Source of the DNA: Minisyncoccota bacterium
GTDB lineage: Bacteria; Patescibacteriota; Minisyncoccia; Minisyncoccales; JAQTVQ01
Direction of reading: 5' to 3'
DNA length: 64,000 bases
NCBI GenBank assembly: GCA_028706715.1
Contig: JAQTVQ010000002.1
Span: 3,510 to 67,509 of the forward strand
Shown here in pieces: positions 7,689 to 22,781 of this stretch. The notes below the pieces were generated by a model that searched no databases, was not told the DNA's origin, and saw nothing but the letters and a program-made list of their open reading frames with translations. A program made the position numbers and the translations under genes. Positions within the stretch are counted from its first letter, which is position 1, and each line of letters starts with the position of its first letter.

Positions 7689-7730
7689 CAAATAAATCAA
7701 AGTTGGAAAATCAAAATACAAGCGGGAGAA

Positions 7731-7790
7731 TATATCATCGCAAAGCGATACAATAATTTTACATTTTGATACTTGCATTTAAATTAAAGC
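7731..7790. repeat. ~60-nt intergenic repeat element, copy A
   Basis: TATATCATCGCAAAGCGATACAATAATTTTACATTTTGATACTTGCATTTAAATT matches the reverse complement of 22330..22392 nearly base for base. Confidence 0.6.
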
Positions 7791-7849
7791 GCCATTGAAG
7801 ATAAAAAGCCAGAAGTTATCTGAAATTTAATTTTATATTTAATAATACT

Positions 7850-8971
7850 ATGTACATCAAAGGCGTCGGAATGACAAAATTTGATTACAGCCAAAAACAA
7901 TGGTGGGAATTTGCTTATGAAGCGGCCTTGGACGCCTTGGAAGACGCAAAAATGAAAGCAAGCCAGCTTGACGCAATAGTATTAAGCACCATCTCCAGCG
8001 CCGGAGGAGGAGAGCACCAAACGCATAAAGTTTCTTTAATCTCCGATCTTTTTAAAACCCACATACCGATAATAGAAACTCCTTCCGTATGCTCCGGAGG
8101 GGGAGTGGCTTTTTGGACGGCAAACCGGCTCGGTTTTAAAAATGTTTTGGCTTTGAGCGGAGAGAAAGCGGTGGACAATCGCACCGAAATTACAACCGAT
8201 TTGATAATGTCCGCCGCAGACCGCTCCATAGAACAGACGGAAGGGATGATCTTTCCGGCTCAAAACGCCTTTGTTTGGCAGGAATATATGAAAAAATATA
8301 AAGCCACGATGGAAGACCTTTCTTTAATCTCTTATAAAAACCATCAGAACGCGGCTTTAAACCCAAAGGCTTATTATTATAAAAGGCAAGTGTCCTTGGA
8401 AGATATTAAAAAATCCCCGGAAGTCGCTTCTCCCTTGCGCTTAATGGACTGCTCCATGTCGGTTAACGGCGGAGCGGCCGCGATTTTAACTCAAGAAAAA
8501 ACCGACATAGAGGTGGCAGGATCGGGATTCGCAACCGATTATCTTCTTACTTTCGGAAGGGAGGAGACTCACCATTTTCGCGCTACCGAATTGGCGGCAA
8601 AAAGCGCCTACGAGCAAGCCCGGATTTCTCCTAAGGATATTGATGTCGCCGAACTCCACGACGCTTTTTCTCCCATAGAGCTTTTTTCCTATGAAGATTT
8701 GGGGTTCGTGCCGAAAGGACAAGGAGCCGAGCTTATAAGGTCGGGAAAAATAAATTTGGGAGGAGAGTTTCCAATCAACCCATCGGGAGGATTGAAAGCC
8801 AAAGGACATCCCATTTCAGTAACCGGATTGGCTCAAATTTATGAAATTACGAAACAGCTTAGAGGACAGTGCGGAGAGAGGCAGGCGAAAAACGCGCGCA
8901 TCGGATTATGCCAAAATATCGGAGGAGCGGGGGGAAGCATTACAGTGCATATCTTGAGAAAAATTAAATAA
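7850..8971 (+). CDS. Thiolase-like protein of the archaeal/SCP-x type (acetyl-CoA C-acetyltransferase family)
   Basis: GVGMTKF...LDAIVLSTISSAGGGEHQ...ETPSVCSGGGVAF. The active-site Cys context is typical of the thiolases that pair with DUF35 proteins. Confidence 0.7.
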   Translation: MYIKGVGMTKFDYSQKQWWEFAYEAALDALEDAKMKASQLDAIVLSTISSAGGGEHQTHKVSLISDLFKTHIPIIETPSVCSGGGVAFWTANRLGFKNVLALSGEKAVDNRTEITTDLIMSAADRSIEQTEGMIFPAQNAFVWQEYMKKYKATMEDLSLISYKNHQNAALNPKAYYYKRQVSLEDIKKSPEVASPLRLMDCSMSVNGGAAAILTQEKTDIEVAGSGFATDYLLTFGREETHHFRATELAAKSAYEQARISPKDIDVAELHDAFSPIELFSYEDLGFVPKGQGAELIRSGKINLGGEFPINPSGGLKAKGHPISVTGLAQIYEITKQLRGQCGERQAKNARIGLCQNIGGAGGSITVHILRKIK

Positions 8972-9464
8972 TTTTAAAATTGGAAAGAAGATCGTTAAAA
9001 TATTTTTTAATTAAAGGAGAAGATTCAATAACGCAGACCCCTTTGCCGGGCTGGCCGTATACAACGGCAAATCCTTTTTCAGACAACAGCACACAGGGAA
9101 TGGCAAGCAAATCTTCTTCACCTTCAACAAAAACGTTTTTGTTGAAAAAAATCGCTTCTTTGATAATCCTCCACGATTCCGACTGTATCGTCCCCGCCGG
9201 ATTTTCCAAAAAAAGATCATAACCCAACCCTTTTGGAACCGACATTCTCTGCGTCTTGCCGTCAAATATTTTAACATTGGAAGGCAAGTTTAAAGAACAA
9301 TAGTCTCCGACCGTAATCACTTTTTTAAAATTTCTTTGCCACGCAAGCCGGTTAAACCTTATTGATACTTCGTCGTCCGAACCGAAAATAGGAAAGCCTA
9401 TCGGCTCCCGCAATTTTTCCCTTAATGAATCCGGCAAAATGTAAGTTTGAAAGAAAACAGGCAT
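8964..9464 (-). CDS. Hypothetical protein that resembles the DUF359/COG1909 family (archaeal GTP-dependent dephospho-CoA kinase); assignment is tentative
   Basis: 166 aa with VFVEGEEDLLAIPCVLL...VVYGQPGKGVCVI. Family membership is from memory of the conserved EGEEDL-type motif. Confidence 0.3.
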   Translation of the reverse strand: MPVFFQTYILPDSLREKLREPIGFPIFGSDDEVSIRFNRLAWQRNFKKVITVGDYCSLNLPSNVKIFDGKTQRMSVPKGLGYDLFLENPAGTIQSESWRIIKEAIFFNKNVFVEGEEDLLAIPCVLLSEKGFAVVYGQPGKGVCVIESSPLIKKYFNDLLSNFKII

Positions 9465-9556
9465 AAGAAGGCGGCAAATTAAAAAATACCTTGTTTAAAA
9501 AACAAAATCAATAGAAATTAAAATGGTCCTCCAGCGGACGAAAAACCAATAATATT

Positions 9557-10588
9557 ATGTTTTACCAATGCCCGAAATGCAAAAGAAAATGGCAATATCC
9601 GGTTAAAAAATGTCCGGACTGCTTTGAAATGCTTGAAAAAATGAACTCTAAAACGGCAAAAGTTTTTGCCGTCTCCAAGATAAGCGTTCCTTCTTTGGCC
9701 CATCCCCATGTTCCTTATTTCGCTCTGCTTTTGGAAGATGAATTTAAAAACAAGTGGGCCCAAAAAAGCTTTAAAGAATATTCCGTTGGCCAATCCGTTG
9801 ATTATCCCGCTTCAGCGGACGCCAAAACCGTGGCAATTTGGCGCATCAAATATGATCTTTCCGAAGCAATTGAAAAAATCATCGGCTTAATCGGCGAACC
9901 AAACATAAAGCCAAAAAGCAAAATATTGATAATCCCGGCATTAAACGAGCCCAGGCATCCTTATTTCAAAAATAATACTTCTCCTGACTTTTTGGAGCAG
10001 ACCATTCTCCTCCTGATAAACCGCGGAGCTCAAAAAGAAAATATCCAAATAGCGGGGCAAAGCTTTAACGACATTCCCATTGAAGCATGCGCCATGAAGT
10101 CGGGATTGCTCAATGTCTGCCTTAAATACGGGATCCCTCCTTTGGATCTTTCCAAAATCCCTTTTGCCAAAAAGGATGATTTGGAGATTTCCGAAAATGT
10201 TTTTTCGGCGGATATAATTTTAAATCTTGCCATGCTTAAGACAGGAAAGGCCTGCGCTTCTGAAAATCTTTTTAAATTTTTAAATAAAAAAAATTATTTG
10301 GGATTGAAATATCTTTACGGAGAAAAAGAAATTTTTAAGAAAATACAGACCGTCCTGCCCGAAATATTGACTTTGGCGGAAGCCGACAGAATCCAAACAG
10401 AAGAAAAATTCGTCAGCTTTCTCGGTCTTGCCATGGCAAGCCGCGATTCCCTTGGGCTGGATGCCGTTTTTAACAAAATAAGACCCGGCAAGGCCTTGCC
10501 CAAAATATTGGCGGATATTAAGATGGAAGATGTTCTTATCGCCGGAAGGCAATTGGAAGAGTCCAAATTTGACAATATAAATATTTAA
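9557..10588 (+). CDS. DUF35-like Zn-ribbon/OB-fold protein (thiolase partner) fused to an uncharacterised ~230-aa C-terminal domain
   Basis: The N-terminus MFYQCPKCKRKWQYPVKKCPDCFE is a C4 zinc ribbon followed by an OB-like stretch, as in DUF35 proteins that complex with archaeal thiolase/HMG-CoA synthase. The C-terminal domain is unrecognised. Confidence 0.45.
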   Translation: MFYQCPKCKRKWQYPVKKCPDCFEMLEKMNSKTAKVFAVSKISVPSLAHPHVPYFALLLEDEFKNKWAQKSFKEYSVGQSVDYPASADAKTVAIWRIKYDLSEAIEKIIGLIGEPNIKPKSKILIIPALNEPRHPYFKNNTSPDFLEQTILLLINRGAQKENIQIAGQSFNDIPIEACAMKSGLLNVCLKYGIPPLDLSKIPFAKKDDLEISENVFSADIILNLAMLKTGKACASENLFKFLNKKNYLGLKYLYGEKEIFKKIQTVLPEILTLAEADRIQTEEKFVSFLGLAMASRDSLGLDAVFNKIRPGKALPKILADIKMEDVLIAGRQLEESKFDNINI

Positions 10589-10605
10589 AAAATAGAACAA
10601 AAAAA

Positions 10606-11349
10606 ATGAAAAATAAAATCGTTTTAGTAACAGGATCGTCTCAAGGGATAGGAAGAGCAATCGCTCTAAAATTTGCCGCTCTCGGAGCGCAAATCGCTTT
10701 AAACGATATCGCCTGCCAGGAAGAAAAATTAAAAGCCGTTAAATCAGAAATGGAAAACTTTGGGGCAAAAGCCGAATATTTCTTGGCCGACGTCTCCAAT
10801 TTTGAAGAAGTTGAAAAAATGACGGCCGCGATAAAAGAAAATTTCAGCGGATTGGACATTCTAGTAAACAACGCCGGCATCGCCAAAGACAGGACTCTTG
10901 CCAAAATGACGGCTGAAGAATGGCAAAAAGTAATTGATGTTAATCTGACCAGCGTGTTCAATTGCTCTAAAAACGCTTTGCCTCTTCTGATTGCAAGCCA
11001 AGGAAGCATAGTCAATATTTCTTCATTCTCCGCTTTAAGAGGAAATTTCGGACAGGCAAATTACACCGCGGCAAAAGCGGGAATTATCGGTTTTACCAAA
11101 ACTTTGTCAAAAGAAGTCGGAAAATTCGGAGTAAGAGTTAACGCAGTGGCCCCCGGGTTCATTGAATCAAATATGACCCAGGCAATGGATATGCCCGAAG
11201 AAATTAAAATGATGGTAAAAAAGCTCACCTCTCTCGGGAGAGCCGGCCAGCCTGAAGAAGTGGCAAACGCAGTCGCTTTTCTCGCTTCATCCGAAGCAAG
11301 TTTTATTACCGGAACAGTCTTAAACATAGACGGAGGGCTGGCGATATAA
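10606..11349 (+). CDS. fabG: 3-oxoacyl-(ACP/CoA) reductase, SDR family (FabG-like)
   Basis: VLVTGSSQGIGRAIA, NNAGI, YTAAKAG...VNAVAPGFIESNMT are the classical SDR/FabG motifs. Confidence 0.8.
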   Translation: MKNKIVLVTGSSQGIGRAIALKFAALGAQIALNDIACQEEKLKAVKSEMENFGAKAEYFLADVSNFEEVEKMTAAIKENFSGLDILVNNAGIAKDRTLAKMTAEEWQKVIDVNLTSVFNCSKNALPLLIASQGSIVNISSFSALRGNFGQANYTAAKAGIIGFTKTLSKEVGKFGVRVNAVAPGFIESNMTQAMDMPEEIKMMVKKLTSLGRAGQPEEVANAVAFLASSEASFITGTVLNIDGGLAI

Positions 11350-11515
11350 AACAATAAATAATAAATAACATAATTGACCATTGCCTCACAAGCTTTGGAA
11401 AACAAAAAAACATGTTAGCAATAAGCCAAAAACAAGTTAAAAACTTCTTCCTTTAAACAATATAAAAATCGTTATTAAAGCGGTTGAAAACGCTTTCGGC
11501 GATTACGGCAGAGAT

Positions 11516-12387
11516 TTGGTTCAGATGCCCTGCAAGCAATATCTTTATTTTACCGAAAACAACGGCGATTTAAGGGTGATGCCTTCTTATTCTTCGGTTT
11601 TAAAAATGGCCGGAACAAAAATCGTTAACGTCCATCCCGACAATCCGAAAAAAGGATTGCTGACCGTTATGGCCAGCATTCTTTTAAACGATCCCAAAAC
11701 AGGAATGCCCGTATCAATTATGGATGGAAGCTACATCACCGCCATGAGAACCGGCGCCGCCGGAGCGGTGGCAACCAAATATTTGGCTAGAGAAGACGCC
11801 ATTACTTTAGGAGTTGTCGGAGCCGGGATCCAGGCCGTCTATCAAATCGCCGCCATCTCTAAAGTCCGCAAACTTAAATCAATAGCGGTTGCCGATCCCA
11901 ATGAAAAAGCCGTAAAAACCTTAATTAAAACATTGGAGAAAGAAGGAATAGAAGTCCGCGAAGCAAAAATAGAAGAAGTTTGCGGAATGGATATTCTGAC
12001 AACAACCACCCCTGTCAGAAAGCCGATTATCAAAAAAGAGTGGATTAGGCCCGGAACGCATATCAATGCCATCGGCGCGGACGCGGAAGGCAAAGAAGAG
12101 CTTGAACCGGATATTTTAAGAGAAGCAAAATAATTATTGATGATTGGGCCCAAGCCAGCCATTCCGGAGAGATAAACGTTCCGGTCAGCCAAGGGATAAT
12201 ATCCAAAGAAAACGTTTGGGCCGGGCTTGGAGACATTGTAGCCGGAAAAAAAATTGGAAGAAACAGCCCCGAAGAGATAACTATGTTTGATTCTACCGGT
12301 TTGGGACTCCAAGATCTTTACACTGCCGTTGAAGTCTTAAAGCTGGCAAAAAAACAAGGAGTCGGCAAAGAAATAGAACTCATCTAG
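11516..12387 (+). pseudogene. Ornithine cyclodeaminase/mu-crystallin family gene with an unusual or missing 5' start and a -1 frameshift at 12127..12133
   Basis: The first frame (to the TAA at 12131..12133) encodes the Rossmann part (GVVGAGIQAVYQ...INAIGADAEGKEELEPDILREAK*). The family C-terminus (IIIDDWAQASHSGEIN...GRNSPEEITMFDSTGLGLQDL) continues in the -1 frame from 12127 to 12387. The junction is a 4-A run. The frame is open to 11441 upstream, but no ATG is present. Confidence 0.55.
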
Positions 12388-12505
12388 ATTGTAGCTTGCA
12401 GGAGTCTCTCCTTCGGAGAGAAAGGAATAATAATATCATGTCCTTCTTATCCGCTCTTAAACGGATAAAACTTCCTACAAGCTAATTCCTACAAGCTCAA
12501 AATTT

Positions 12506-14005
12506 ATGCTTTATTCCAAAGAACAAATTAAAAAAATTATTCCTTACGACGATCCCTTTCTTTGGGTTGACGAGATAGAAAAGATAGAAGGAGACACTAT
12601 CTTCGGCTATAAGCAAACCTCTCCCAACGATTCTCATTTCAAGGGCCACTTTGTTGATTTTCCCATTATGCCCGGAGTTTTAGTGGTTGAAGGCCTTGCC
12701 CAAACAGGAACCCTTTTGCTCCGCGAAAAGCTGGGCGGAAACCATCAAGAAAAACATATCCTGGCTTATCAGGTAAGAAACACCCTGTTCTATTCGCCCA
12801 TAATGCCCGGGGACAAGATTAAATACAAAGTCAGGCTTCTCGGAACATACGGCGCTAAAATCTCCAACTTTGTCGGAGAAGCTTATGTTGGAGACGCCTT
12901 AAAGTGCGAGTTAAGGTTCTCCGCGGCAATAATGGACAAAAAAGAGATGAAAGAAAAGTTTCTAGCAAAAGAAAGAGGCTCTTCCCAAGAAAAGAAAAAA
13001 TTATTCAACCTTCCGGAACTAAAAGTGGGCAGGCTAAAGGCAAAGCTTCCTATTATTCAAGGGGGAATGGCTGTAAGAGTTTCCTTGCATAAACTGGCCG
13101 GAAATGTCGCCAAAGAAGGAGGAGTCGGAATTATCGCGGTTTCAGGAATGAAAGACTCAAGAGAAGTAAAAGAAGAAATCAAAAAAGCGCGCGAAATTGC
13201 AAAGGGAAACGGCGCAATCGGCATAAACATAATGGGAGTTGTCGGCCAGTTTAAACAACTGGTGGCGGCGGCGGTTGAAGAAAAAGTTGATCTTATAGTC
13301 CAAGGAGCCGGATTTCGCACCGATATTTTTGAAATGGCAGGAAAAGAATCCATTCCGGTTTTTGCGATGGCTTCGTCGGTAAAGGTGGCCAAAAAAGCGG
13401 AAGAAGCCGGAGCGTCGGCAGTCGTCATTGAAGGATGCGATGCCGGCGGACATTTAGGATTTCCCAAAGGACGCCCGTTCAAAAAAACAATAGATATTGT
13501 TAAAGAAGCCGTAAAGGAAGTCAAAATTCCCATTATAGCGGCCGGAGGGATTTTTGACGGAAAAGATATAGTTGAAATGCTAAAAGCCGGAGCAAAAGGA
13601 GTGCAAATGGCAACCCGTTTTGTCGCCACTGAAGAATGCGACGCAGACATAAAGTTCAAGCAAGCGCATATCAATGCCAAAAAAGAAGACGTGGTGATTA
13701 TCCATTCTCCGGTAGGACTGCCCGGCAGGGCCGTCAAAACTCCTTTTGTTGAAAAGCTGCTAAAAGGCTCCGCTCCAAAACCTGATCCGATTGAGTGCCA
13801 AGGATGCATAGGCCCAGTCTGCGATAAAAGCTATTGCATATTAAAAGTCTTGGAAAACGCCAGAAAAGGAGATTTGGAAAACGGATTGGTTTTCGCCGGA
13901 TCCAATGTATGGAGAGTCAACAAAATGACAACAGTAAAAGAGCTTATCAAGGAGCTGGTTGACGAGGCGAACGGAATACTGGCAAAAGAGCCTCTCTATA
14001 TATAA
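12506..14005 (+). CDS. Fusion protein: FabZ/FabA-type hotdog 3-hydroxyacyl dehydratase (N-terminal) plus FabK/nitronate-monooxygenase-type FMN enoyl reductase (C-terminal)
   Basis: The N-terminus PYDDPFLWVDEIEKIE...SHFKGHFVDFPIMPGVLVVEGLAQTG is the FabZ signature. The C-terminus IIQGGMAVRVS...IEGCDAGGHLG...IPIIAAGGIFDGKD is NMO/FabK-like. Confidence 0.7.
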   Translation: MLYSKEQIKKIIPYDDPFLWVDEIEKIEGDTIFGYKQTSPNDSHFKGHFVDFPIMPGVLVVEGLAQTGTLLLREKLGGNHQEKHILAYQVRNTLFYSPIMPGDKIKYKVRLLGTYGAKISNFVGEAYVGDALKCELRFSAAIMDKKEMKEKFLAKERGSSQEKKKLFNLPELKVGRLKAKLPIIQGGMAVRVSLHKLAGNVAKEGGVGIIAVSGMKDSREVKEEIKKAREIAKGNGAIGINIMGVVGQFKQLVAAAVEEKVDLIVQGAGFRTDIFEMAGKESIPVFAMASSVKVAKKAEEAGASAVVIEGCDAGGHLGFPKGRPFKKTIDIVKEAVKEVKIPIIAAGGIFDGKDIVEMLKAGAKGVQMATRFVATEECDADIKFKQAHINAKKEDVVIIHSPVGLPGRAVKTPFVEKLLKGSAPKPDPIECQGCIGPVCDKSYCILKVLENARKGDLENGLVFAGSNVWRVNKMTTVKELIKELVDEANGILAKEPLYI

Positions 14006-14020
14006 AAATTTCAATAACCA

Positions 14021-14045
14021 ATTTACCTGCCTACCGGCAGGCATT
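14021..14045. promoter_or_regulatory. Conserved palindromic intergenic element, copy 1 (TTTACCTGCCTaCCGGCAGGCA)
   Basis: Between the FabZ-FabK fusion stop (14005) and the fabK start. Near-identical to the copy at 18368..18396. Confidence 0.5.
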
Positions 14046-14133
14046 GGATTTTCAATGCTTCAATGATCAAACCGCATACGCTTATTTGAGAATTGAAACA
14101 TTATATTATTTATTGAAAATTAAAAATTGAAAA

Positions 14134-15066
14134 TTGAAAATTTATTCGCAGAATATGCCTGGAGAAAACAAACTTACAAAACTTCTGAATATAGGATATC
14201 CGATCATCCAAGGAGGAATGGCCGGTATTTCCGAATCAAAACTGGTTTCCGCGGTTTCCAATTCCAACGGACTGGGAACTATAGGAGCGGGACTGATGCC
14301 GGCTTCCTGGCTGGAGCAGGAAATCGTAAAAACGCGGCAGCTGACAGAAAAGCCTTTTGCGGTAAATCTTTTTATGCAAAATCCAAAGGTTGAAGAGATA
14401 GTTAAGACCATTATCAAAAATAAAGTTTCTATCGTCTTTATCGGAGGAGGAAATCCCATGCTCGTTATGCCTTACCTGAAAAACGCCGGAATAATTACAA
14501 TCCCAGTCGTTCCCTCTCCAAGGCTCGCGAAAAAAATGGAAGATAGCGGCGCGGACGCCGTAGTTGTTGAAGGAATAGAATCGGGAGGGCATCTTGGTCC
14601 AAATACCACTTTTTGCCTCATCCCCCAAACGGCAAAGCTAGTTGAAAAAATTCCCGTTATCGCGGCCGGAGGGATTTTTGACGGAAAGACTGCAGCAATG
14701 GCTATGGATGCCGGAGCCGACGGCGTCCAAATAGGCACAAGATTTTTGGCTGCTTCGGAGTGCGTTGTTTCTGAAAGCTACAAGCAAAGAATTTTGGACG
14801 CCTCCGCAGACGATATTGAGGTCGTCTTGGCTTTTACCGGCCACCCTTTGAGAGTAATCAAAAACAAATGGGCCGAAGATATGAAAAAGCTGGAAGCAAA
14901 AAACGTCTTCCCTGAAGAATTGAACGCAGGGAAAATAGCCGGATCCTTGGGAGGGGAGAATGTAGATAATATCCCTCTTTTGGCGGGATTATGCTCGGCA
15001 AGCATCAAGGAAATAAAATCCTGCCGGGAGATTATAGAAGAAATTGCCGAATCTTTAAAAAAATGA
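14134..15066 (+). CDS. fabK: FabK-like FMN-dependent enoyl-(acyl) reductase (nitronate monooxygenase family)
   Basis: YPIIQGGMAGISESKLVSAVSNSNGLGTIGAG, GIESGGHLG, IPVIAAGGIFDGKTAAMAMDAGADGVQIGTRF. Confidence 0.7.
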   Translation: MKIYSQNMPGENKLTKLLNIGYPIIQGGMAGISESKLVSAVSNSNGLGTIGAGLMPASWLEQEIVKTRQLTEKPFAVNLFMQNPKVEEIVKTIIKNKVSIVFIGGGNPMLVMPYLKNAGIITIPVVPSPRLAKKMEDSGADAVVVEGIESGGHLGPNTTFCLIPQTAKLVEKIPVIAAGGIFDGKTAAMAMDAGADGVQIGTRFLAASECVVSESYKQRILDASADDIEVVLAFTGHPLRVIKNKWAEDMKKLEAKNVFPEELNAGKIAGSLGGENVDNIPLLAGLCSASIKEIKSCREIIEEIAESLKK

Positions 15067-15719
15067 ACAAAACAGGGGCAACAATTTGCAAAATACTCCT
15101 TAAACCGGCCATAGAAAAGACGTTCATTAATAAAATAAGAGGAGAGAAAAACATTCCGAAGGGCAATTTTATATTGGCCGCGAATCATCAAAGCAACCTT
15201 GACCATATTATTATCGGGTCTTTCCTTGTTCCGAGAAAATTCAAATTTATGGGACAAACCGACGGGCACAAAGGCGTAAAAAAAATATTGGTAAATTTAT
15301 TTTACGGCTTTTTTGGAGTAATTCCCTTAGACAGAGGCAGCAGCAAATCCAAAAAAACAGCCATTCAAAAAGCGGTGGAGGCTATAAAAAAAGGATATGT
15401 TCTAGGCATTTATCCCGAAGGCACAAGAACCCGCACAGGAACGCTGGGAGAGGCAAAACCCGGAGTGGCTAAAATATTTTTGGCCAGCGGTGCGCCGATT
15501 GTCCCGATAGCCATCAAGGGAGCCTTTGAGCTTTTTCCTCCTCACGGAAAATTAAAAATTAAAAGATCCATAGAAGTAAGGATAGGAAAGCCGATTTACT
15601 TTAAAAAAGAGCTGAAAGCGGGGCAAGGAATTCCTTACCGATCCGAAAAGTACCAAAATTTATGCAAAAAAATTTCCGAAAAAGTAATGTCTAAAATTTC
15701 GGAACTGTCCAAAAAATAA
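15064..15719 (+). CDS. plsC: 1-acyl-sn-glycerol-3-phosphate acyltransferase (PlsC family)
   Basis: The HX4D motif ANHQSNLDH and PEGTRT are present. The start was chosen at the ATG at 15064, which overlaps the upstream stop. The ORF track frame extends to 14991. Confidence 0.7.
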
Positions 15720-15723
15720 TATT

Positions 15724-17253
15724 ATGGCAAAAATAAAAAAAATACTAATAGCCAACAGGGGAGAAGTAGCTTTGCGCATAATCCGAACCTGCAAGGAAAT
15801 GGGAATAAAAACGGCGGCTCTTTGCCCTATGCCCGGACAGGAAAAGTTTTTTTTGGAAACCAAATTTGCCGATGAATATCATTTTTTAAACCAAGAAGGA
15901 AGCCATGGATACTTAAGCTCTGAAAAAATTATAAGCATAGCGAAAAAAGCAAACGCTGACGCTATCCATCCGGGATACGGATTCCTTTCTGAAAATTGGA
16001 AGTTCGCAGAGCTTTGCGAAAAAAATAAAATCAAGTTTATCGGACCCGATCCGGACATCTTAAAAATTTTTGAAGATAAAATAAAAGCTAAAAATTTTGC
16101 CGAAAGCGAAGGGCTCCCGATTTTGCCGGCAAGCAAAGGATCTATAAAAACTCAAAAAGACTTGATGGAATGGGCTCAAAAAATTGGCTCTCCTTTTGTT
16201 CTCAAAGCCCAAAGAGGAGGAGGAGGGATCGGCATAAGAATAATTGACGGAGAGATTACCGTAAACCAAATTTCTTCAATTTCTTCCGATATCCAAAGGC
16301 AAATGTCGGTTTCTTTTTCCGACGCGGATTTTTTTCTGGAAAAATATCTGCCCGAGGCCAAGCATATAGAATTTCAAATCCTCGGAGACGGAAAAAACGC
16401 CGTGCATCTCGGAGAAAGGGAATGCACTATCCAAAGAAGATTCCAAAAACTGCTTGAAGAAGCTCCTTCCTCTTTTCTAGACAGCGAGTTAAGAGAAAAA
16501 ATGGGATCGCTGGCGGCCGGACTGGCTAAAAAACTAAAGTATAAAGGAGCCGCTACGGTAGAATTTTTGGTAGACAGAAATAAAAATTTTTATTTTATGG
16601 AGGTTAATCCGCGGCTTCAAGTTGAACATCCGATTACCGAAGCGATTACCGGCATTGATATAGTCGCCGAGCAAATTAAAATAAGCCAAGGAGAAGAATT
16701 GGGCTTCAGCCAAAAAGACATTCGCCTGAACGGCTGGGCGATAGAAGCGAGAATCAACGCCGAAGATCCCCAAAAAAAATTCCGGCCATGCCCGGGGACC
16801 GTTCAAAAATATCTGCCTCCGGGAGGACAGGGAATTTTTATGCATACTTTTCTTCAACAGGGACAAAAAATTTATCCTTATTTTGATTCTATGATGGCAA
16901 AGCTGGTTGCTTGCGGTAAAAACCGGCAAGAAGCTATCGCCAAGCTTAACCGCGCGCTGGACGAATTAATTATTGAAGGAGTCCCCACCACCTCTCCCTT
17001 TTTCAAAATAGTCGCCGCTGACAGCAGCTTTTTGAAAGGAGATTTTTTTACCAATTTTATAGAGAGAAAGGACATCGCGCAGAAGCTTTCCAAGGAACCG
17101 GCTCAGCTTTTCTGCGAGGTGTGCGAAGTAGAAGAAAAAGATATCGCTGAAATTGTTTTTCATATATATAAAGAGCTGAAAAAGGAAAAGCCCGAATCTC
17201 CGCAAAAAACATCAAATTGGATTTTGGCCCAAAGATTAAAAATGCTGGAATAA
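15724..17253 (+). CDS. accC: Biotin carboxylase subunit of acetyl/acyl-CoA carboxylase
   Basis: MAKIKKILIANRGEVALRIIRTCKEMGI..., ATP-grasp motifs, 509 aa. Confidence 0.9.
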   Translation: MAKIKKILIANRGEVALRIIRTCKEMGIKTAALCPMPGQEKFFLETKFADEYHFLNQEGSHGYLSSEKIISIAKKANADAIHPGYGFLSENWKFAELCEKNKIKFIGPDPDILKIFEDKIKAKNFAESEGLPILPASKGSIKTQKDLMEWAQKIGSPFVLKAQRGGGGIGIRIIDGEITVNQISSISSDIQRQMSVSFSDADFFLEKYLPEAKHIEFQILGDGKNAVHLGERECTIQRRFQKLLEEAPSSFLDSELREKMGSLAAGLAKKLKYKGAATVEFLVDRNKNFYFMEVNPRLQVEHPITEAITGIDIVAEQIKISQGEELGFSQKDIRLNGWAIEARINAEDPQKKFRPCPGTVQKYLPPGGQGIFMHTFLQQGQKIYPYFDSMMAKLVACGKNRQEAIAKLNRALDELIIEGVPTTSPFFKIVAADSSFLKGDFFTNFIERKDIAQKLSKEPAQLFCEVCEVEEKDIAEIVFHIYKELKKEKPESPQKTSNWILAQRLKMLE

Positions 17254-17305
17254 AATATTGCGGCAGCGATGCGGCAATATGGAACAGCTTTGAATCCTCT
17301 TAAAA

Positions 17306-17689
17306 ATGCAAATAAAAATAAAAGGAAAAATTTATAACATTGAGGTTTTTGAACCGCAGAAGGGATCTGTTACGGTCAGGGTAAACGGCCAAGAATTTAA
17401 TTTCGGAGAAAAAAAGAATTCTTGCGGCCGCTTAAAAGAAAAAGGCAAAGGGAAAGGAACCTCCTCAAAAGAATCTAAAAAAGAAATAAAAGCCCCCATA
17501 ACGGGAGTTATTTCCAAGATATTTGCAAAAGAAGGAGATCCGATCCTTCCCGGACAAAAAATTTTAAATTTATGCGCTATGAAAATGGAAAACGAGATAG
17601 TGTCGGAGATAGAAGGAAAAATAAAAAAAGTCGCGGTTAAAGAGGGGCAGACGGTAAAGTCCAACGAACTGTTGGCGGAATTAGAATGA
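17306..17689 (+). CDS. accB: Biotin carboxyl carrier protein
   Basis: The C-terminal biotinyl domain carries the AMKM motif (LCAMKMENEI). Confidence 0.8.
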   Translation: MQIKIKGKIYNIEVFEPQKGSVTVRVNGQEFNFGEKKNSCGRLKEKGKGKGTSSKESKKEIKAPITGVISKIFAKEGDPILPGQKILNLCAMKMENEIVSEIEGKIKKVAVKEGQTVKSNELLAELE

Positions 17690-17728
17690 TTGCGTTATTT
17701 CCTAATTTTTAAGATAATTCAATAAAAA

Positions 17729-18277
17729 TTGAAAATTAAAACATCTATGGTCGTCAACTCTTTCCCTCTGCTAAATTCTACCAATATCAAAGCCAAAGAG
17801 CTCGCCCGGGAAGGAGCTGATCCTTGGACGGTTATTCTTGCAGAAGAACAGGCCGGCGGTTACGGCAAAGAAAAACGCCAATGGTTCTCGCCCAAAGGAG
17901 GATTGTATTTTTCAGTCATTCTTCCCAAAAGCGACATTAAGGATATCCAGATCTTAACCGTTCTAGCGGCTTTTTCCGTTGCGAGAATATTAAATGAAGA
18001 ATACAAAGTCCAAGCTTTAATCAAGCCGCCAAACGATATTTGGGTGAATAATAAGAAAATAGCCGGTATTTTAACGGAGAATATCATTGCCGGAGAAAAA
18101 GCGCAAAGTTCGGTTATAGGCATAGGGATAAACACGAATATTAAAAATTTCCCGAAAGATTTGGCTAATATCGCCGCTTCGCTTAAAATAGAAACAGGGC
18201 AAGAATCAGATAATAAAGATTTGATGAAAAAAATAACGGAAGAGCTTAAAAAGCAATTGGAAGCGATAAGCCAATAA
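17729..18277 (+). CDS. birA: Biotin--protein ligase, catalytic domain only
   Basis: ILAEEQAGGYGKEKRQWFSPKGGLYFSVIL matches the BPL signature (GRGRRGR.W.SP.G.LY.S). Confidence 0.6.
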   Translation: MKIKTSMVVNSFPLLNSTNIKAKELAREGADPWTVILAEEQAGGYGKEKRQWFSPKGGLYFSVILPKSDIKDIQILTVLAAFSVARILNEEYKVQALIKPPNDIWVNNKKIAGILTENIIAGEKAQSSVIGIGINTNIKNFPKDLANIAASLKIETGQESDNKDLMKKITEELKKQLEAISQ

Positions 18278-18367
18278 GCCGAATTAAAAATGCAAATATC
18301 AAAAATTAAAATGACAATGCAAAATGTTAAAATGATTGAAACGGAAATTTTATAATTTTACATTGTT

Positions 18368-18396
18368 ATTTTACCTGCCTGCCGGCAGGCAAGCAT
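18368..18396. promoter_or_regulatory. Conserved palindromic intergenic element, copy 2 (TTTTACCTGCCTGCCGGCAGGCAAGCATT). The core GCCTGCCGGCAGGC is a perfect 14-nt palindrome.
   Basis: Between birA and the carboxyltransferase start. Shares 22 nt with the copy at 14021..14045. Confidence 0.5.
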
Positions 18397-18418
18397 TTTG
18401 ATTTTTAAGTTATTTACT

Positions 18419-19957
18419 ATGTCTTTTGAAGAACAAATAAAAAAACTGGAACAAAAAACCGATGCTCTTGACTCTCCTGATTTTACCGTTAAGCAGCGTC
18501 AAAAAGGAAAGCTGACGGCAAGAGAAAGGATAGAAGCTCTCCTAGACAAAGACAGCTTTGTTGAACTTAATCCTTTCGCGCAATCCAGGTTTGACGATTT
18601 TGGAATGGACAAAAAGAAAGTTTCCGGAGATGCGGTCATTTCAGGCTTCGGCAAGATTAACGGACGGCAGGTCTGCCTTTACAGCCAAGACTTTTCAAAA
18701 ATAGGAGGATCTCTGGGAGAAATGCACGGACAAAAAATAATCAGCGTTCTAAAAATGGCTAGAGAAACCGGCTGTCCTTCAATCGGAATCATTGACAGCG
18801 GAGGAGCGCGCATCCAAGAAGGAATATCAAGCCTTGACGGCTATGCCGGAATCTTTAGAGAAATGATCAAATCTTCAGGAGTAATCCCTCAAATTTCCGT
18901 TATCCTGGGGCCTTCCGCCGGAGGAGCTTCTTACGCTCCGGGGCTCTCCGACTTTATTTTTATGGTTGAAGGAATTTCTCAAATGTATATTACCGGTCCG
19001 GAAGTAATTAAATCGGTAACCGGAGAAAAAATTTCTTTCAACGATCTCGGAGGAGCTTCCGTCCATGCTTTGCAGAGCGGATGCGCCCACTTTATTTTCC
19101 AAAACGAAAACGAATGTTTGGAAAATGTTAAGAAACTTTTAAGCTTCCTTCCTTCAAACAACTTGGAAAGCCCTTCCGCCGAAAAGCCCTGCGGCGCAAA
19201 AAACTCCTGCCCAAAGCTTTTGGAAATAGTGCCTGACGAAGAAGGGAAGGGATACGATATGAAAGAAGTGATTGAAGAAATTTTTGACCCGGATTCTTTT
19301 TTTGAAGTCCAAGAGGGTTTCGCTCCCAATTCAATTTCCGGTTTCGGCCGGCTGGGGGGATATGTTGTGGGAATTGCGGCCAACCAAGCCAAAACCATGG
19401 CCGGAACATTGGATGTCAATTCTTCGGATAAAATCGCCCGCTTTGTAAGATTCTGCGATTGTTTCAATATCCCAGTCATTAACTTGATTGACACTCCCGG
19501 ATATCTCCCGGGAACGGATCAAGAGCATAAAGGAATAATTCGGCACGGAGCGAAAATATTATACGCTTACGCCGAAGCCGGCGTTCCTAAAATAAGCTTG
19601 ATTTTAAGAAAAGCTTTCGGCGGAGCCTATATCGCTCTTGCGTCAAAAGAGCTTGGATATGACAAAGTCGTCGCATGGCCTTCGGCTCAAATAGGAGTAA
19701 TGGGCCCAAAGCAAGCTGTAAAAATTATTTTCCGCAAAGAGCTGGAAAAAAATCGGCACAATCCCGAATTTGAAAAAGAAAAAATTTCCGAGCTTTCCGA
19801 AACATTTTTAAGCCCGTGGCAGGCCGCCAAGCTTGGAAAGATAGACTTGATAATCAAGCCTCAAGAGACTAGAACCGTTTTGTTCAAGCTGTTGGAGTCT
19901 TTGCTTAATAAGCGCGGGAATAAAATCCCTAGAAAGCACGGGAATATTCCGCTATAA
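18419..19957 (+). CDS. Acyl-CoA carboxylase carboxyltransferase subunit (PccB/AccD5-like, fused beta-alpha carboxyltransferase)
   Basis: GKLTARERIEALLDKDSFVEL...ISGFGKINGRQVCLYSQDFSKIGGSLGE. Start taken at the ATG at 18419; the ORF track frame starts at a TTG at 18398. Confidence 0.8.
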   Translation: MSFEEQIKKLEQKTDALDSPDFTVKQRQKGKLTARERIEALLDKDSFVELNPFAQSRFDDFGMDKKKVSGDAVISGFGKINGRQVCLYSQDFSKIGGSLGEMHGQKIISVLKMARETGCPSIGIIDSGGARIQEGISSLDGYAGIFREMIKSSGVIPQISVILGPSAGGASYAPGLSDFIFMVEGISQMYITGPEVIKSVTGEKISFNDLGGASVHALQSGCAHFIFQNENECLENVKKLLSFLPSNNLESPSAEKPCGAKNSCPKLLEIVPDEEGKGYDMKEVIEEIFDPDSFFEVQEGFAPNSISGFGRLGGYVVGIAANQAKTMAGTLDVNSSDKIARFVRFCDCFNIPVINLIDTPGYLPGTDQEHKGIIRHGAKILYAYAEAGVPKISLILRKAFGGAYIALASKELGYDKVVAWPSAQIGVMGPKQAVKIIFRKELEKNRHNPEFEKEKISELSETFLSPWQAAKLGKIDLIIKPQETRTVLFKLLESLLNKRGNKIPRKHGNIPL

Positions 19958-19967
19958 TATTATTAAC

Positions 19968-20837
19968 ATGGCAAAAGTCAGCATTATTGTAGGCCAAAGC
20001 GCCTCTCTCTCCAAACAAATAATGGAAAAATATTCTTTGACAATGATTCCTTTTGTAGTTGACTGGAAGTCTGAAAAAAGCAACCTCAACCCGGAAAGCA
20101 TTTTCCAAAAGATGGCTGACGCCGAAGAAAACGGTTCGGAAGATTTGCCAAAAACCTCTCATCCGGCGCCATGGCTTTTTAAAAGCTTTTTTGAAGAAAA
20201 GCTTAAAAATTCCGATTCGGTTCTTTTTGTTTCTTTAAGTTCTAAGCTGTCAGCCACTTTTGAATCCGCCAACACCGGCAAAGAAATGCTCAATCCTTCC
20301 CTCAAGGAAAAAGTTTTTCTTTTTGACAGCCAGAATGTCAGCGCCGGAGAAGGATTGATCGCAATCAAAGCGGCAGAAATTATCGGACAAGGAAAATCAA
20401 TTCAAAAAGCCGTTGAAGAATTGCAGGATTTTAAACAAAAAATTTGTTCAGCGGCGATTGTTGAAAATATCAAATGGCTGGAAAAAGGCGGAAGGGCAAA
20501 AGGCTTGTCAAAACTTGCATTGCCTTTTTTGCAAAAAACGGGAGCGAATATCGTCCTTAAAATTAAAAACGGGAAGATAGAGCCGGCTATGCTGTCCCTA
20601 AAGAACAGCAACCAAGCCTCGGCGGTCTTTAATTTTTTTAAAAAAGACAAAAACAGGCAGAAAGCGCGAGTAGCGATAACTTATGCGCAGAACGAACAAG
20701 AAGCCAAAGACCTCAAAAATCTGATATTGAAAGAATTTCCCGAAACCGAGATAGCTTTCGTCTGTCCGATTGATAATATTATAGGGATACATACCGGTCC
20801 CAACGCCTTAATCTGCGCGTGGCATCCTTTGGAATGA
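19968..20837 (+). CDS. fakB: DegV-family fatty-acid-binding protein (FakB-like)
   Basis: SHPAPWLFKSFFEEKL...VSLSSKLSATFESA...FDSQNVSAGEGLIAIKAAE. Confidence 0.75.
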   Translation: MAKVSIIVGQSASLSKQIMEKYSLTMIPFVVDWKSEKSNLNPESIFQKMADAEENGSEDLPKTSHPAPWLFKSFFEEKLKNSDSVLFVSLSSKLSATFESANTGKEMLNPSLKEKVFLFDSQNVSAGEGLIAIKAAEIIGQGKSIQKAVEELQDFKQKICSAAIVENIKWLEKGGRAKGLSKLALPFLQKTGANIVLKIKNGKIEPAMLSLKNSNQASAVFNFFKKDKNRQKARVAITYAQNEQEAKDLKNLILKEFPETEIAFVCPIDNIIGIHTGPNALICAWHPLE

Positions 20838-20838
20838 T

Positions 20839-21498
20839 ATGCTTTTAAATTGTTATTTGCCAGCCGCTCTTATTTCTTATTTCCTCGGCTCAATTTCCGC
20901 CGCCGTTTTGGTTGGAAAGCTTTTTACCAAAAAAGATTTTCAGAAAGAGGGAAGCGGAAACCTTGGAGCCACCAACGCTTTGCGCATTGTCAGCAAAGAG
21001 AAGGGAAAAGCGTGGGGAGTTTTTGCTTTTCTTGCCGTTTTTCTTTTTGACGCCGGAAAGGCCGTCGCCGCATGCCTTATCTCTCTAAAAATTGTTCCCG
21101 ATTACAATATTGCTTTGACTTTAGCTGTTTTTTTCGCCGTTCTCGGACACAATTATTCCGTATTTCTAAAATTCCGCGGAGGAAGAGGAGCCGCATCTCT
21201 CCTCGGAGTCTTTTTGTTTTTTGACTGGCGCGTTTTCTTGGCATGGTTCGGAACTTTTTTAACAACAGCCTCCATCTTTGAAATAATTGAGAGCAAAAAA
21301 TTTGATAAAAAAACAATTGCCAGAGCCGCAAACCGCCAAATTATCGGCCGGCTTTTCGGAGAGGTATTTGCGCTCGTTCCCGTTTATTTTCTTAATCAGT
21401 CGCTTTTTTGGCCTTGTTTGCTCGCCACTCCGTTAATCCTGGTTCGGCACAAAGACAGGATAGAAAAACAGCTAAAGGAGATTGCAGAGAAAGATTAG
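20839..21498 (+). CDS. plsY: Glycerol-3-phosphate acyltransferase PlsY
   Basis: GSGNLGATNALRIVSKEKG...LGHNYSVFLKFRGGRGAASLLG. Confidence 0.8.
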   Translation: MLLNCYLPAALISYFLGSISAAVLVGKLFTKKDFQKEGSGNLGATNALRIVSKEKGKAWGVFAFLAVFLFDAGKAVAACLISLKIVPDYNIALTLAVFFAVLGHNYSVFLKFRGGRGAASLLGVFLFFDWRVFLAWFGTFLTTASIFEIIESKKFDKKTIARAANRQIIGRLFGEVFALVPVYFLNQSLFWPCLLATPLILVRHKDRIEKQLKEIAEKD

Positions 21499-21638
21499 GC
21501 CGCGAGCATAAATTTCTAAATCCAATAAGCATACCTCTTATTTAAAATCATCCAATCTCTGCCGGCGTTTCATTTTCTTTTAACGGTTAATTTATAGACT
21601 TTTTGGCTTTTTCTTGGTAAGATTTCCTTAGAAATCCA

Positions 21639-21711
21639 GCCCTCGTGGTGTAATGGATAACATGTCTGTCTTCGGAACAGAAGATTGCAGGTCCGACTCC
21701 TGCCGAGGGCA
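21639..21711 (+). tRNA. tRNA-Arg (anticodon TCG)
   Basis: Hand-folded. Acceptor GCCCTCG/CGAGGGC, anticodon stem TCTGT/ACAGA with loop CTTCGGA, T-stem GCAGG/CCTGC, discriminator A. Total 73 nt. Confidence 0.75.
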
Positions 21712-21816
21712 CGAAGAGAAAGCCACGTAAAAATCCGAAAGGATTTTGTATCGTGGCCGAGAGCGTGAAGAGAAAGAGAAAGTCTGCAAACCGCAAGCTA
21801 AGAAGCTATAAAGCAA

Positions 21817-22248
21817 ATGATATTGACTAAAAGTAAAAAAAGTTTCATTATCTTAGCAGGAGCCCTGTCTCTGTTTTTGTTTTTAGCGCCGAACGTATTG
21901 GCCGGAGGCCAAAACTGCCCGACCGAAGGGCTTGTTCCCTGCGGAACGGAAGGCTGTCCTTGCGAAATTTGCGATCTTTTCAAAATGATAAACGGGATTG
22001 TAAACTATATAATCACTGGCATAGTTCCTTTGATTGCCATATTGTTCGTGACTTACGGCGGATTTAAATATATTACCGCAGACGGCGATCCCGGAAAAAT
22101 AAAAGAAGCTAATGACGTTTTTACCGCCGCGATAATAGGATTGGTCATCATTTACGGCGCATGGATGGCCATAGGATTTGCTTTGAATTTAATCGGAGTC
22201 GCCGAGTGGACGGGACTGGGAAACTGGTACCAAATCAATTGCCCTTAA
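21817..22248 (+). CDS. Small secreted/membrane protein that resembles the T4SS-pilin (TrbC/VirB2-like) family reported in candidate phyla
   Basis: Signal peptide, a Cys-rich segment (CPTEGLVPCGTEGCPCEICD), then two hydrophobic helices (VPLIAILFVTYGGFKYITADGDPGKIKEAN ... IIGLVIIYGAWMAIG). Confidence 0.4.
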   Translation: MILTKSKKSFIILAGALSLFLFLAPNVLAGGQNCPTEGLVPCGTEGCPCEICDLFKMINGIVNYIITGIVPLIAILFVTYGGFKYITADGDPGKIKEANDVFTAAIIGLVIIYGAWMAIGFALNLIGVAEWTGLGNWYQINCP

Positions 22249-22255
22249 ATCCTTT

Positions 22256-22328
22256 GCCCTCATAGCTCAATTGGCAGAGCAGTTGCCTCTTAAGCAATTG
22301 GTTACAGGTTCAAGTCCTGTTGAGGGCA
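22256..22328 (+). tRNA. tRNA-Lys (anticodon CTT)
   Basis: Hand-folded. Acceptor GCCCTCA/TGAGGGC, anticodon loop CTCTTAA, T-arm ACAGG-TTCAAGT-CCTGT, discriminator A. Total 73 nt. Confidence 0.8.
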
Positions 22329-22329
22329 C

Positions 22330-22392
22330 AGAATGGAAATTTAAAATGTAAAAATCAAAATGTAAAATTATTGTATCGCTTCGCGACAATAT
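22330..22392. repeat. ~60-nt intergenic repeat element, copy B (inverted orientation), directly downstream of tRNA-Lys
   Basis: AATGGAAATTTAAAATGTAAAAATCAAAATGTAAAATTATTGTATCGCTTCGCGACAATATAT. Its reverse complement aligns with 7731..7790 and includes a conserved small hairpin (TCGC-GAA-GCGA versus ATCGC-AAA-GCGAT). Confidence 0.6.
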
Positions 22393-22520
22393 ATTACCCC
22401 GCGGAAGGGGATACCATAATTTTGCATTTTGATGTTTGAATTTTGCATTTTCGCGTCGAAATTTCCTCATGTTTATAACAGATTTAATAAATTCAGATTA
22501 CTAAATAATACAAAAACGAT

Positions 22521-22781
22521 ATGTTTAAACCAGAAGAAAAATTAAAAATTATAAACGATTATAAAATCCACGAAACCGATACCGGTTCAGTAGAAGTTCA
22601 AATCGCTTTGCTGACCGCTGATATCAAAAGACTGTTGGAACATTTTAAAATCCACAAAAAAGACCTTCATTCCAAAAGGGGGCTTTTAAAAATGGTGGCC
22701 AAAAGAAGAAAGCTTCTAAAAGTCTTGGCCAAAGAAGACGAAAAGAAGCACGATGCTCTTGTTAAAAAATTAGGGTTATAG
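22521..22781 (+). CDS. rpsO: 30S ribosomal protein S15
   Basis: TGSVEVQIALLTADIKRLLEHFKIHKKDLHSKRGLLKMVAKRRKLL. Confidence 0.9.
   Translation: MFKPEEKLKIINDYKIHETDTGSVEVQIALLTADIKRLLEHFKIHKKDLHSKRGLLKMVAKRRKLLKVLAKEDEKKHDALVKKLGL

Follow-up and report, generated by a model that had tools for sequence, protein, structure and literature searches.

We have identified an apparently undescribed and widespread family of intergenic repeats, of a known general kind, that occurs in several Patescibacteria lineages, in a Clostridia-labelled metagenome-assembled genome (MAG) and in a tailed phage. Two copies, designated A and B, lie in opposite orientations in a 64,000-nt stretch of the genome of a Minisyncoccota bacterium (GenBank assembly GCA_028706715.1, contig JAQTVQ010000002.1, positions 3,510 to 67,509 of the forward strand), which is referred to below as the window. 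They are paralogous members of a dispersed family in which a short hairpin is joined to an array of 7-nt repeats (heptads). We consider the chances about even that the family consists of dispersed gene-boundary repeats, recombining or mobile, which are transcribed together with their neighbors and act at the RNA level.

Gene-expression signals of Patescibacteria are almost unknown, and a literature search returned no paper on this element, nor on promoters, terminators, miniature inverted-repeat transposable elements or intergenic palindromic repeats of the candidate phyla radiation (CPR). A noncoding unit of ~60 nt that is near-identical across classes implies either a conserved recognizing machine or horizontal spread. 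As a processing or leader module, should it prove to be one, the unit would offer practical parts for the emerging genetics of Saccharibacteria and an origin for the intervening sequences (IVSs) of CPR rRNA genes; if it is only a selfish palindrome, it would still be a marker of recombination and of phage-host links.

The repeat family and its copies in the window

Copies A and B match almost base for base, as an earlier note on the window had claimed. Copy A reads ATATATCATCGCAAAGCGATACAATAATTTTACATTTTGATACTTGCATTTAAATT (7730-7785, plus strand) and copy B reads ATATATTGTCGCGAAGCGATACAATAATTTTACATTTTGATTTTTACATTTTAAATTT (minus strand, from 22392 down to ~22335). A repeat scan ranked the pair as the longest inverted repeat of the window (7722-7783 versus 22341-22402; 62 nt, 85% identity), with the second-ranked inverted repeat reaching only 44 nt and 73%. 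When the spacer between fakA and a thiolase gene was compared to the window using blastn, copy B was matched at 86% identity over 65 nt (7722-7785, plus strand, versus 22338-22402, minus strand; E = 6e-14), followed by the opposite arm of copy B (22382-22443, plus strand; E = 1e-6) and by a third site at 18288-18312 (E = 0.009). The likeness between A and B extends upstream, where MAFFT aligned AAATCAAAG..AAAATCAAAATACAA with AAATGCAAAATT..CATCAAAATGCAA, leaving copy A with a 19-nt gap. The AAAATG(C/T)AAAA iterations described earlier near copy B are also real: TTTTRCATTTT occurs six times in the window against 1.36 expected, and five of these sites fall in the two copies (7757, 22343, 22357 (-); 22420, 22441 (+)). 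The copies do lie after fakA and after tRNA-Lys, with the qualification that fakA is here part of a FakA-DegV fusion gene.

Comparison loci (given L-numbers) were drawn from relatives, other genomes, metagenomes and phage, and amount to ~370 kb altogether. Both spacers are 100% identical in all same-species public contigs (L001-L014), which are therefore uninformative on variation. The 23-mer GCGATACAATAATTTTRCATTTT was found in five GTDB genomes, assigned to Paceibacterota, Wildermuthbacteria, Moranbacteria, Saccharibacteria and the Clostridia-labelled MAG (52% G+C), and the related 23-mer GATACAATAATTTTNCATTTTGA in 14 metagenome contigs. All homologues bearing either 23-mer share the surrounding architecture, which is a strand-specific unit of ~60 nt made up of a hairpin, the box AC(A/C)ATAATTTT and four to five T-rich heptads (NCATTTT GATNTTT NNATTTT NAATT). 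Unit positions 24-41 lay outside the search pattern and are still conserved among 15 distinct units (GA T W TTT N M A TTTT N A A TT). The heptad period in the aligned units is 7 nt, and the autocorrelation of T is 0.55 at lag 7.

A hidden Markov model of the 41-nt unit, searched using nhmmer, revealed a mirror unit on the opposite strand beside most copies, including copy B (22377-22338, minus strand, and 22410-22449, plus strand), as well as further elements on known contigs (two on L031, two on L026 and three on L033). A complete element is therefore a pair of units set back to back, so that an A-rich arm, one hairpin or two and a T-rich arm (T-arm) follow one another on each strand. Widely spaced arm pairs enclosing a gene were not found in the ~370 kb searched.

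The hairpin is nearly always directly 5' of the GATAC box and has a stem of 5-9 bp that opens with ATC and closes with GAT. Among the 20 hairpin-bearing units parsed, most have ATC...GAT stems, and the pairs at stem depth three are G-C in 12, C-G in five and A-T in one. On the T-arm strand the loops are mostly the purine triloops GAA, AAA or GGA, and many hairpins of the family contain GCGAAGC, an exceptionally stable mini-hairpin (PMC13037366). The inner stem pairs covary. Since the loop type is tied to the T-arm strand, the unit is strand-specific. Between A and B themselves the hairpin difference (ATCGC..GCGAT versus GTCGC..GCGAT), which had been described as compensatory or wobble, is a one-sided G.T wobble together with a loop change; true compensatory changes are seen only once homologues from other genomes join the comparison.

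Units 1 and 2 of copy B are predicted to fold into a rod of ~40 bp, mostly of A:U pairs and capped by the GC-rich hairpins, with a minimum free energy of -38.9 kcal/mol (z = -6.5). Most two-armed elements have fold z-scores of -2.8 to -6.8 relative to shuffled sequences, the phage copy L043 has -1.8, and copy A (z = -0.4) and L023 (z = -1.1) lack such a rod. No Rfam family matched the elements at its gathering score or at E <= 1, tRNA and rRNA being the only families to reach threshold; the sub-threshold matches of the elements were plant microRNA-precursor models, that is, generic AU hairpins.

These results bear on two simple explanations, independent small RNA gene(s) or a chance AT-rich, low-complexity likeness, which together we regard as extremely improbable. 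The stable fold of copy B would suit the former, and the AT-rich, repetitive composition of the element the latter. Chance is excluded by the blastn match (E = 6e-14) and by the many homologues with covarying hairpins, so that the likeness is neither mere low complexity nor confined to two copies. The small RNA gene proposed in the earlier note was not supported either: besides the lack of an Rfam match and of a fold in copy A, no consistent promoter-to-terminator boundaries are present and the orientation to flanking genes varies.

The features of the window that concern the family are as follows.

5895-7688, plus strand: FakA-DegV fusion gene (Dak2, FakA-like_M and DegV domains, 597 aa), upstream of copy A (Pfam, open reading frame (ORF) list)
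7700-7721, plus strand: decayed A-rich left arm of copy A, AAGTTGGAAAATCAAAATACAA, which aligns with the A-rich arm of copy B (MAFFT)
7722-7728, plus strand: remnant GCGGGAG of copy A, the 3' half of hairpin 1, of which the 5' half is missing (alignment)
7730-7735: central ATATAT linker of copy A, also present in homologues (sequence, alignment)
7737-7749, plus strand: copy A hairpin ATCGC-AAA-GCGAT, of the ATC...GAT type (sequence, hairpin parsing)
7747-7787, plus strand: copy A T-rich unit GATACAATAATTTTACATTTTGATACTTGCATTTAAATT, facing the thiolase ATG (7850) 62 nt away (nhmmer, 34.0 bits, E = 9e-9)
7850-8971, plus strand: thiolase-family gene (373 aa), downstream of copy A (Pfam)
18282-18418: third, degenerate member, in the spacer between the biotin protein ligase (BPL) and acetyl-CoA carboxylase (ACC) carboxyltransferase genes (nhmmer, blastn, comparison with relatives)
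22256-22329, plus strand: tRNA-Lys (CTT), upstream of copy B (ARAGORN, Rfam)
22338-22377, minus strand: copy B unit 1, GATACAATAATTTTACATTTTGATTTTTACATTTTAAATT, which shows an A-rich arm on the plus strand and faces the 3' end of tRNA-Lys (nhmmer, 39.0 bits, E = 2.7e-10)
22375-22387, minus strand: copy B hairpin 2, GTCGC-GAA-GCGAT, which holds the GCGAAGC mini-hairpin motif and has its G.T wobble on the minus strand (sequence, scans)
22388-22396: central linker of copy B, TAATATATT (sequence)
22397-22410, plus strand: copy B hairpin 1, CCCC-GCGGAA-GGGG in the plus-strand reading (sequence, scans)
22410-22449, plus strand: copy B unit 2, GATACCATAATTTTGCATTTTGATGTTTGAATTTTGCATT, facing the rpsO ATG 71 nt away (nhmmer, 31.7 bits, E = 5e-8)
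22521-22781, plus strand: rpsO (ribosomal protein S15), downstream of copy B and followed by an NYN-domain gene and the gene for PNPase (Pfam)
1288-1307, 3486-3503, 34605-34623 and 62926-62944, plus strand, and 49177-49194, minus strand: TGnTAnnAT boxes

Copy B (22338-22449) is a complete two-unit element. Copy A (7700-7787) is a decayed copy that kept hairpin 2 and the T-arm, whereas one half of its hairpin 1 is gone and little similarity is left in its left arm. The third member consists of A-rich heptads, TATAATTTTACATTG, an inserted hairpin CCTGCCTGCCGGCAGG (18374-18389) and then GCATTTTGATTTTTAAGTTATTTACT-ATG, and is orthologous to the complete element L031b. A 67-aa ORF at 22267-22470 on the minus strand, which spans tRNA-Lys and copy B, is annotated as a gene in L001, L004, L005 and L007; it is almost certainly spurious, and recognition of the element accounts for it in these public assemblies. 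Besides the fusion of FakA (Dak2 and middle domain) to a FakB-like DegV domain within 597 aa, the window has a separate DegV gene at 19968-20837 that adjoins plsY.

Gene boundaries, rRNA genes and turnover between relatives

Most members fill the spacer between co-directional genes in the order stop codon, A-rich arm, hairpin(s), T-arm, 0-8 nt and ATG, and 7 nt often separate the end of the T-arm from the ATG (S7, S11, ribosome recycling factor (RRF), MreB and GatB). Homologues occupy the S12|S7 and S13|S11 junctions and lie ahead of the genes for NusG, RRF, MreB, MurA, GatB and a NiFe hydrogenase, while those of the window precede the genes for S15, thiolase and the ACC carboxyltransferase. 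The downstream genes often belong to the translation apparatus.

Other members are associated with rRNA genes. A 16S rRNA gene ends 190 nt from the L021 copy, and in Wildermuthbacteria (L022 and L034-L037) cmscan placed a complete element at the tip of helix 25 of the 23S rRNA, where the insert occupies the loop of the helix at large-subunit (LSU) model positions 573-594. The insertion at these loci is thus at helix 25, which like helix 45 is a classical site of 23S IVSs, whereas the window copies are intergenic. The 23S copies of L036 and L035 differ by three stem substitutions, all of which give G.U pairs on the rRNA-sense strand and C.A mismatches on the other. This is direct evidence that the hairpins of the 23S copy are maintained as RNA. 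CPR 23S genes carry short non-intron insertions at known IVS sites that are thought to be of the RNase III type (PMC11270868), and IVSs are seen as sporadic, horizontally spread and excised by RNase III (PMC4990558; PMC11270868). The 23S fragment of L036 (1-1907) has further insertions of ~69, 170 and 60 nt near LSU model positions 230, 285 and 312. A gene of the 23S_rRNA_IVP family (PF05635) lies among the acetyl-CoA carboxylase genes of a close relative (L015, 3969-4358; also L016 and L017), and no such gene is present in the 52-nt spacer between the genes for biotin carboxylase and biotin carboxyl carrier protein in the window.

A strict pattern had no matches in a viral collection, and a looser T-arm pattern identified one tailed-phage contig there (50% G+C; terminase, neck and tail genes). 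It holds four copies in intergenic spacers between tail and terminase genes, and their best-conserved unit runs against all genes of the contig. A BLAST search of the INPHARED phage database gave no match. The T-arm of copy B, when searched against plasmids by BLAST, matched only (TTTTGAA)n arrays on plasmids of Nostoc, Aulosira and Calothrix, and these cyanobacterial matches are taken as analogy and not as homology.

Element positions are mostly not conserved between species at 84-91% protein identity. In the fakA-thiolase spacer, L040 and L041 (thiolase 86-89% identical) have another palindrome, composed of an A/C-rich arm, a CCTGCCGGCAGG hairpin and ATTTGGN heptads, and L042 (an 84% relative) has an extra gene instead. 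L042 also has a full element after an SDR gene, a site where the spacer is 62-65 nt long in the window and in L041. The tRNA-Lys-rpsO spacer is without hairpins and T-arm in L044 and L015: the 91% relative retains only an A-arm-like stretch, and the 90% relative almost nothing. In the BPL-ACC carboxyltransferase spacer, the A-arm/T-arm architecture is found in three related species with differing hairpins, and the more distant relative L018 has a spacer of 7 nt. Across relatives the spacers are wholly remodeled, and no precise empty site was found. Flanks and both arms are identical between L026 (7250-7300) and L030 (2995-3020), but the central hairpin differs at nine of 18 bases (ATCGCGAAGCGAT versus TCGCCCGCGGCGA), which suggests localized replacement, such as gene conversion or exchange between copies.

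In Nealsonbacteria relatives the tRNA-Lys-rpsO spacer (L018 8734-8952, L019 and L020) holds five to six tandem octamers, AAGCATTT, instead of the element. The Nealsonbacteria contig L018 also encodes, at 14221-17421, an FtsH homologue of 1066 aa with intein and LAGLIDADG Pfam matches, apparently an intein-containing FtsH.

Proposed mechanism and alternative explanations

The favored reading can be set out as a series of steps. Recombination or some mobility mechanism would spread the family or turn it over, and each element would be transcribed together with neighboring genes as an RNA-level gene-boundary module. The rod and hairpins could then serve as a processing or 3'-stabilizing site (an RNase III-type substrate), which would behave as an IVS when inside rRNA, and the U-rich, unstructured T-arm, without a Shine-Dalgarno sequence, could be the leader of the next gene and perhaps also an internal promoter. 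Two observations point to a role at gene 5' ends: the phase of the T-arm to the ATG is constant, and where an element has only one well-conserved arm (A, L023, L024, L028 and L039), this is without exception an arm in sense orientation upstream of a gene. The window spacers that were inspected by eye showed no Shine-Dalgarno-like sequence, making an unstructured U-rich leader plausible.

Several points weigh against this reading. Each of its functional steps is inferred. Within one element the arms are identical at 24 of 33 positions, compared to 25.1 of 33 between elements (a comparison weakened by shifts of heptad register), so that selection for arm-arm pairing is not supported; each arm seems to be held to the consensus and not to its partner, and the rod may be a by-product of both arms fitting one consensus. 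The density is ~1 element per 20-30 kb over the loci examined using nhmmer, which is a low copy number. Of the features expected of a miniature inverted-repeat transposable element, the arms are inverted and similar, but inspection by eye revealed no target-site duplication around B, L026b, L031a/b, L033c or the 23S copy, sharp termini were likewise not visible, the number of heptads per arm varies, and no transposase or REP-associated tyrosine transposase (RAYT) was tied to the family, although RAYTs were not searched for. The BPL-ACC carboxyltransferase site common to three species suggests function rather than recent insertion. Finally, a native promoter or leader would account just as well for the constant phase of the T-arm to the ATG and for the location ahead of highly expressed genes. 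The earlier suggestion of a miniature mobile or repeat element thus stands as to a dispersed repeat, given the extra copies and their non-orthologous positions, and is not supported as to transposition.

A native, non-mobile expression cassette is the first alternative to be weighed, and we judge it unlikely. Each outward unit would be a promoter with a U-rich leader, the palindrome would be two divergent promoters, and the hairpins would insulate from or terminate upstream transcription. The promoter could be an extended -10-like (T)GATACAAT with a start at about unit position 15-17; alternatively, it could be TTTNCA-N17-TNAATT, with transcripts that begin at the ATG and are leaderless. In line with the latter, a promoter scan found TTTACA-N16/17-TAAATT in both copies (9/12 matches), and a TNAATT box lies ~7 nt before the ATG in L023, L024, L031b, L033b and L039, yet its second position is A in only seven of 15 units. 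In line with the former, the hairpin-less members (L028, L033 and L039) read TGATACAAT, like the TGnTAnnAT boxes of the window. The conservation pattern of the box is nAnAC, however, with an invariant C at what is normally the least-conserved third position and a variable '-7' T (T/A/G); column conservation in both possible registers, in the GATAC(A/C)AT box as in the TNAATT box, is opposite to the rules for a -10 element, and a -10 box reading fits poorly. The lone conserved arms described above also suit a promoter, as do the often highly expressed downstream genes (S7, S11, S15, NusG and RRF), and Neisseria REP2 and Borrelia IR repeats provide a precedent (PMC3184786). On the other side, the best-conserved unit faces tRNA-Lys in antisense orientation in B, likewise faces the ends of upstream genes in L026b and L031b, and runs against all genes of the phage contig, a complete element lies inside 23S rRNA, and the S12-S7 and S13-S11 junctions are normally operon-internal. 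Identity over 33-60 nt across classes also far exceeds what a promoter needs.

The TGnTAnnAT boxes themselves are extended -10-like and precede long ORFs (90-681 aa), with 6-8 nt between box and ATG. They appear to be the ordinary promoters of the window, and their placement suggests that many mRNAs of the organism may be leaderless.

A second alternative, which we consider quite unlikely, is a bidirectional intrinsic terminator, possibly assisted by NusA/NusG, in which polymerase passes the A-rich arm, the GC-rich hairpin(s) form and transcription stops in the T-rich arm. The layout of A-tract, GC-rich hairpin and T-tract is that of a terminator, the elements begin directly after stop codons, GAA-type loops are on the strand where the T-arm follows, and a simple scan flagged one site in A and three around B against ~0.1-0.2 expected. 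The phage coding strand even has AUAUUUUU directly after the hairpin. Elsewhere, though, the U-rich tract begins 7-8 nt past the stem, with GAUACAAU in between, whereas the canonical terminators of the window (33382-33415, 42255-42306 and 47040-47133) have U7-8 directly after the stem. These are used at all three convergent junctions of the window, and the element at none of them. Elements are also found at the S12-S7 and S13-S11 junctions within ribosomal-protein operons, with hairpin-less members between S12 and S7, and an intact one lies in an apparently functional 23S gene of two diverged lineages, where an efficient terminator would be lethal. The promoter/terminator cassette put forward in the earlier note is partly supported, in that promoter-like and terminator-like sites are flagged in both copies and that the T-arm ends ~7 nt before many starts; the box conservation, the separation of U-tract and hairpin and the 23S copy all speak against it.

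Very unlikely, in our view, is a DNA-level operator or centromere-like array, in which a small DNA-binding or nucleoid protein would bind the inverted 7-bp repeats cooperatively. Heptad arrays are bound by ribbon-helix-helix proteins such as omega. In favor of this reading, the repeats keep strictly to a 7-nt period, each arm fits the consensus whatever its partner, as recognition by a protein would predict, and related spacers have other heptads: ATTTGGN in L040 and L041, TTGAAAA in the window, and ATTCACT and GCATTCT in L025. Against such an array, a single-stranded or RNA form is indicated by the loop-strand asymmetry and by substitutions that preserve G.U pairs, the element occurs in 23S rRNA, its spread covers classes unlikely to share one regulator, and no candidate protein was identified.

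Further candidates were rejected. As a transcription-factor site common to lipid genes, AATTTTRCATTTTGAT gave 12 matches (<=3 mismatches) where 8.65 were expected; outside the elements there is no enrichment, and the match at 51988 is within a coding region. The dif/Xer, IHF and attC sites, DnaA boxes, DNA-uptake sequences and nut/boxA-boxB, as well as N4-type hairpin promoters (an idea from PMC13037366), were dropped on sequence grounds alone.

Returning to a gene-boundary repeat that acts as RNA, we also offer a bolder version of it, which is speculative and unlikely. The unit (ATC-stem-GAA-stem-GAT, ACAATAATTTT and heptads) would be the recognition module of a horizontally spreading element, either transposase-less or guided by a single-strand hairpin, that moves between Patescibacteria, some Firmicutes and phages. 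It would supply gene boundaries, in the form of an RNA processing site and a leader or promoter independent of a Shine-Dalgarno sequence, and would be the source of the helix 25 IVSs of CPR. If true, this would join rRNA IVSs, heptamer arrays like those called STRR (for short tandemly repeated repetitive) and intergenic palindromic repeats in one mechanism.

Comparison with known repeats and intervening sequences

Enterobacterial repetitive intergenic consensus (ERIC) elements, also called IRUs, are imperfect palindromes of ~127 bp. Like the present elements they are palindromes of ~100-130 bp in transcribed spacers, with a sequence kept across distant hosts, sites that differ between relatives and a low to moderate copy number (in part from PMC3184786). 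They differ in having no sequence similarity to our family, whose arms are variable-length T/A heptad arrays and not defined terminal inverted repeats (TIRs), in which no TA flanks or target duplications were seen, and whose hosts are Patescibacteria instead of Enterobacteriaceae.

REP2 and Borrelia IR repeats carry promoter, ribosome-binding site and ATG with two internal stem-loops directly ahead of ORFs; together with Correia elements they share with our family a small size, an intergenic location and long stem-loops, and they can carry promoters (PMC3184786). The phasing of the T-arm to the ATG is a further likeness. In contrast to our family, Correia elements have 26-bp TIRs and TA duplications, ends that were not seen here, and relative to both Correia and REP2 the box conservation is unlike a -10 element and the promoter activity only putative. 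Correia RNA is cut by RNase III.

The Wildermuthbacteria members resemble 23S IVSs in lying at the tip of helix 25 and in forming an extended stem-loop with G.U-compatible changes on the rRNA strand. They differ in that excision of the helix 25 insert is only predicted and that the two window copies of the family lie outside rRNA. The passages of the IVS literature available to us make no mention of an IVS being identical to dispersed intergenic repeats.

STRR sequences of cyanobacteria are 7-nt periodic intergenic arrays, at times inverted, that are able to form hairpins between co-transcribed genes (PMC2670836), and the arms of our elements likewise are tandem 7-nt repeats in intergenic DNA. 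To judge by the title of Vioque 1997 as cited in PMC2858038, an STRR array lies inside an RNase P RNA gene, so that each family would have been found within a structural RNA gene, 23S in our case. STRR arrays are near-perfect tandem copies of one heptamer without the core of ATC..GAT hairpin and ACAATAATTTT; conservation in our family covers the whole 60-nt unit, in which imperfect heptads are joined to a conserved core that is not repetitive, and the hosts are unrelated. The window has further heptad arrays, TTGAAAA/AAAATTG, just upstream of genes (14113-14143, 17725-17742, 27687-27709 and 47076-47091), and relatives have ATTTGGN, GCATTCT and ATTCACT arrays. Such 7-nt periodic arrays appear to be a general, STRR-like intergenic feature of these genomes.

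Repetitive extragenic palindromes (REPs), and the BIMEs and REPINs that they form, share with our family GC-rich hairpins with a conserved short tag beside the stem, inverted intergenic doublets and hairpin sequences that are exchangeable between copies (L026 versus L030). REPs are mobilized by RAYTs and typically number in the hundreds. The tag is GTATC/GATAC here, and not GTAG or CGTC (PMC3733652); the copy number is far lower, the heptad tails are long and no RAYT was identified, none having been searched for. A second GC-rich hairpin, CCTGCCT(A/G)CCGGCAGG, is present in window spacers at 14026-14041 and 18374-18389. It has four matches (<=1 mismatch) against 0.02 expected, with close variants in spacers of L040, L041 and L042, which suggests a separate family of REP-like hairpins inserting into heptad spacers.

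By analogy, then, the family resembles ERIC, Correia, REP2 and rRNA-IVS repeats, and its arms resemble STRR arrays, while in sequence it is a member of none of them.

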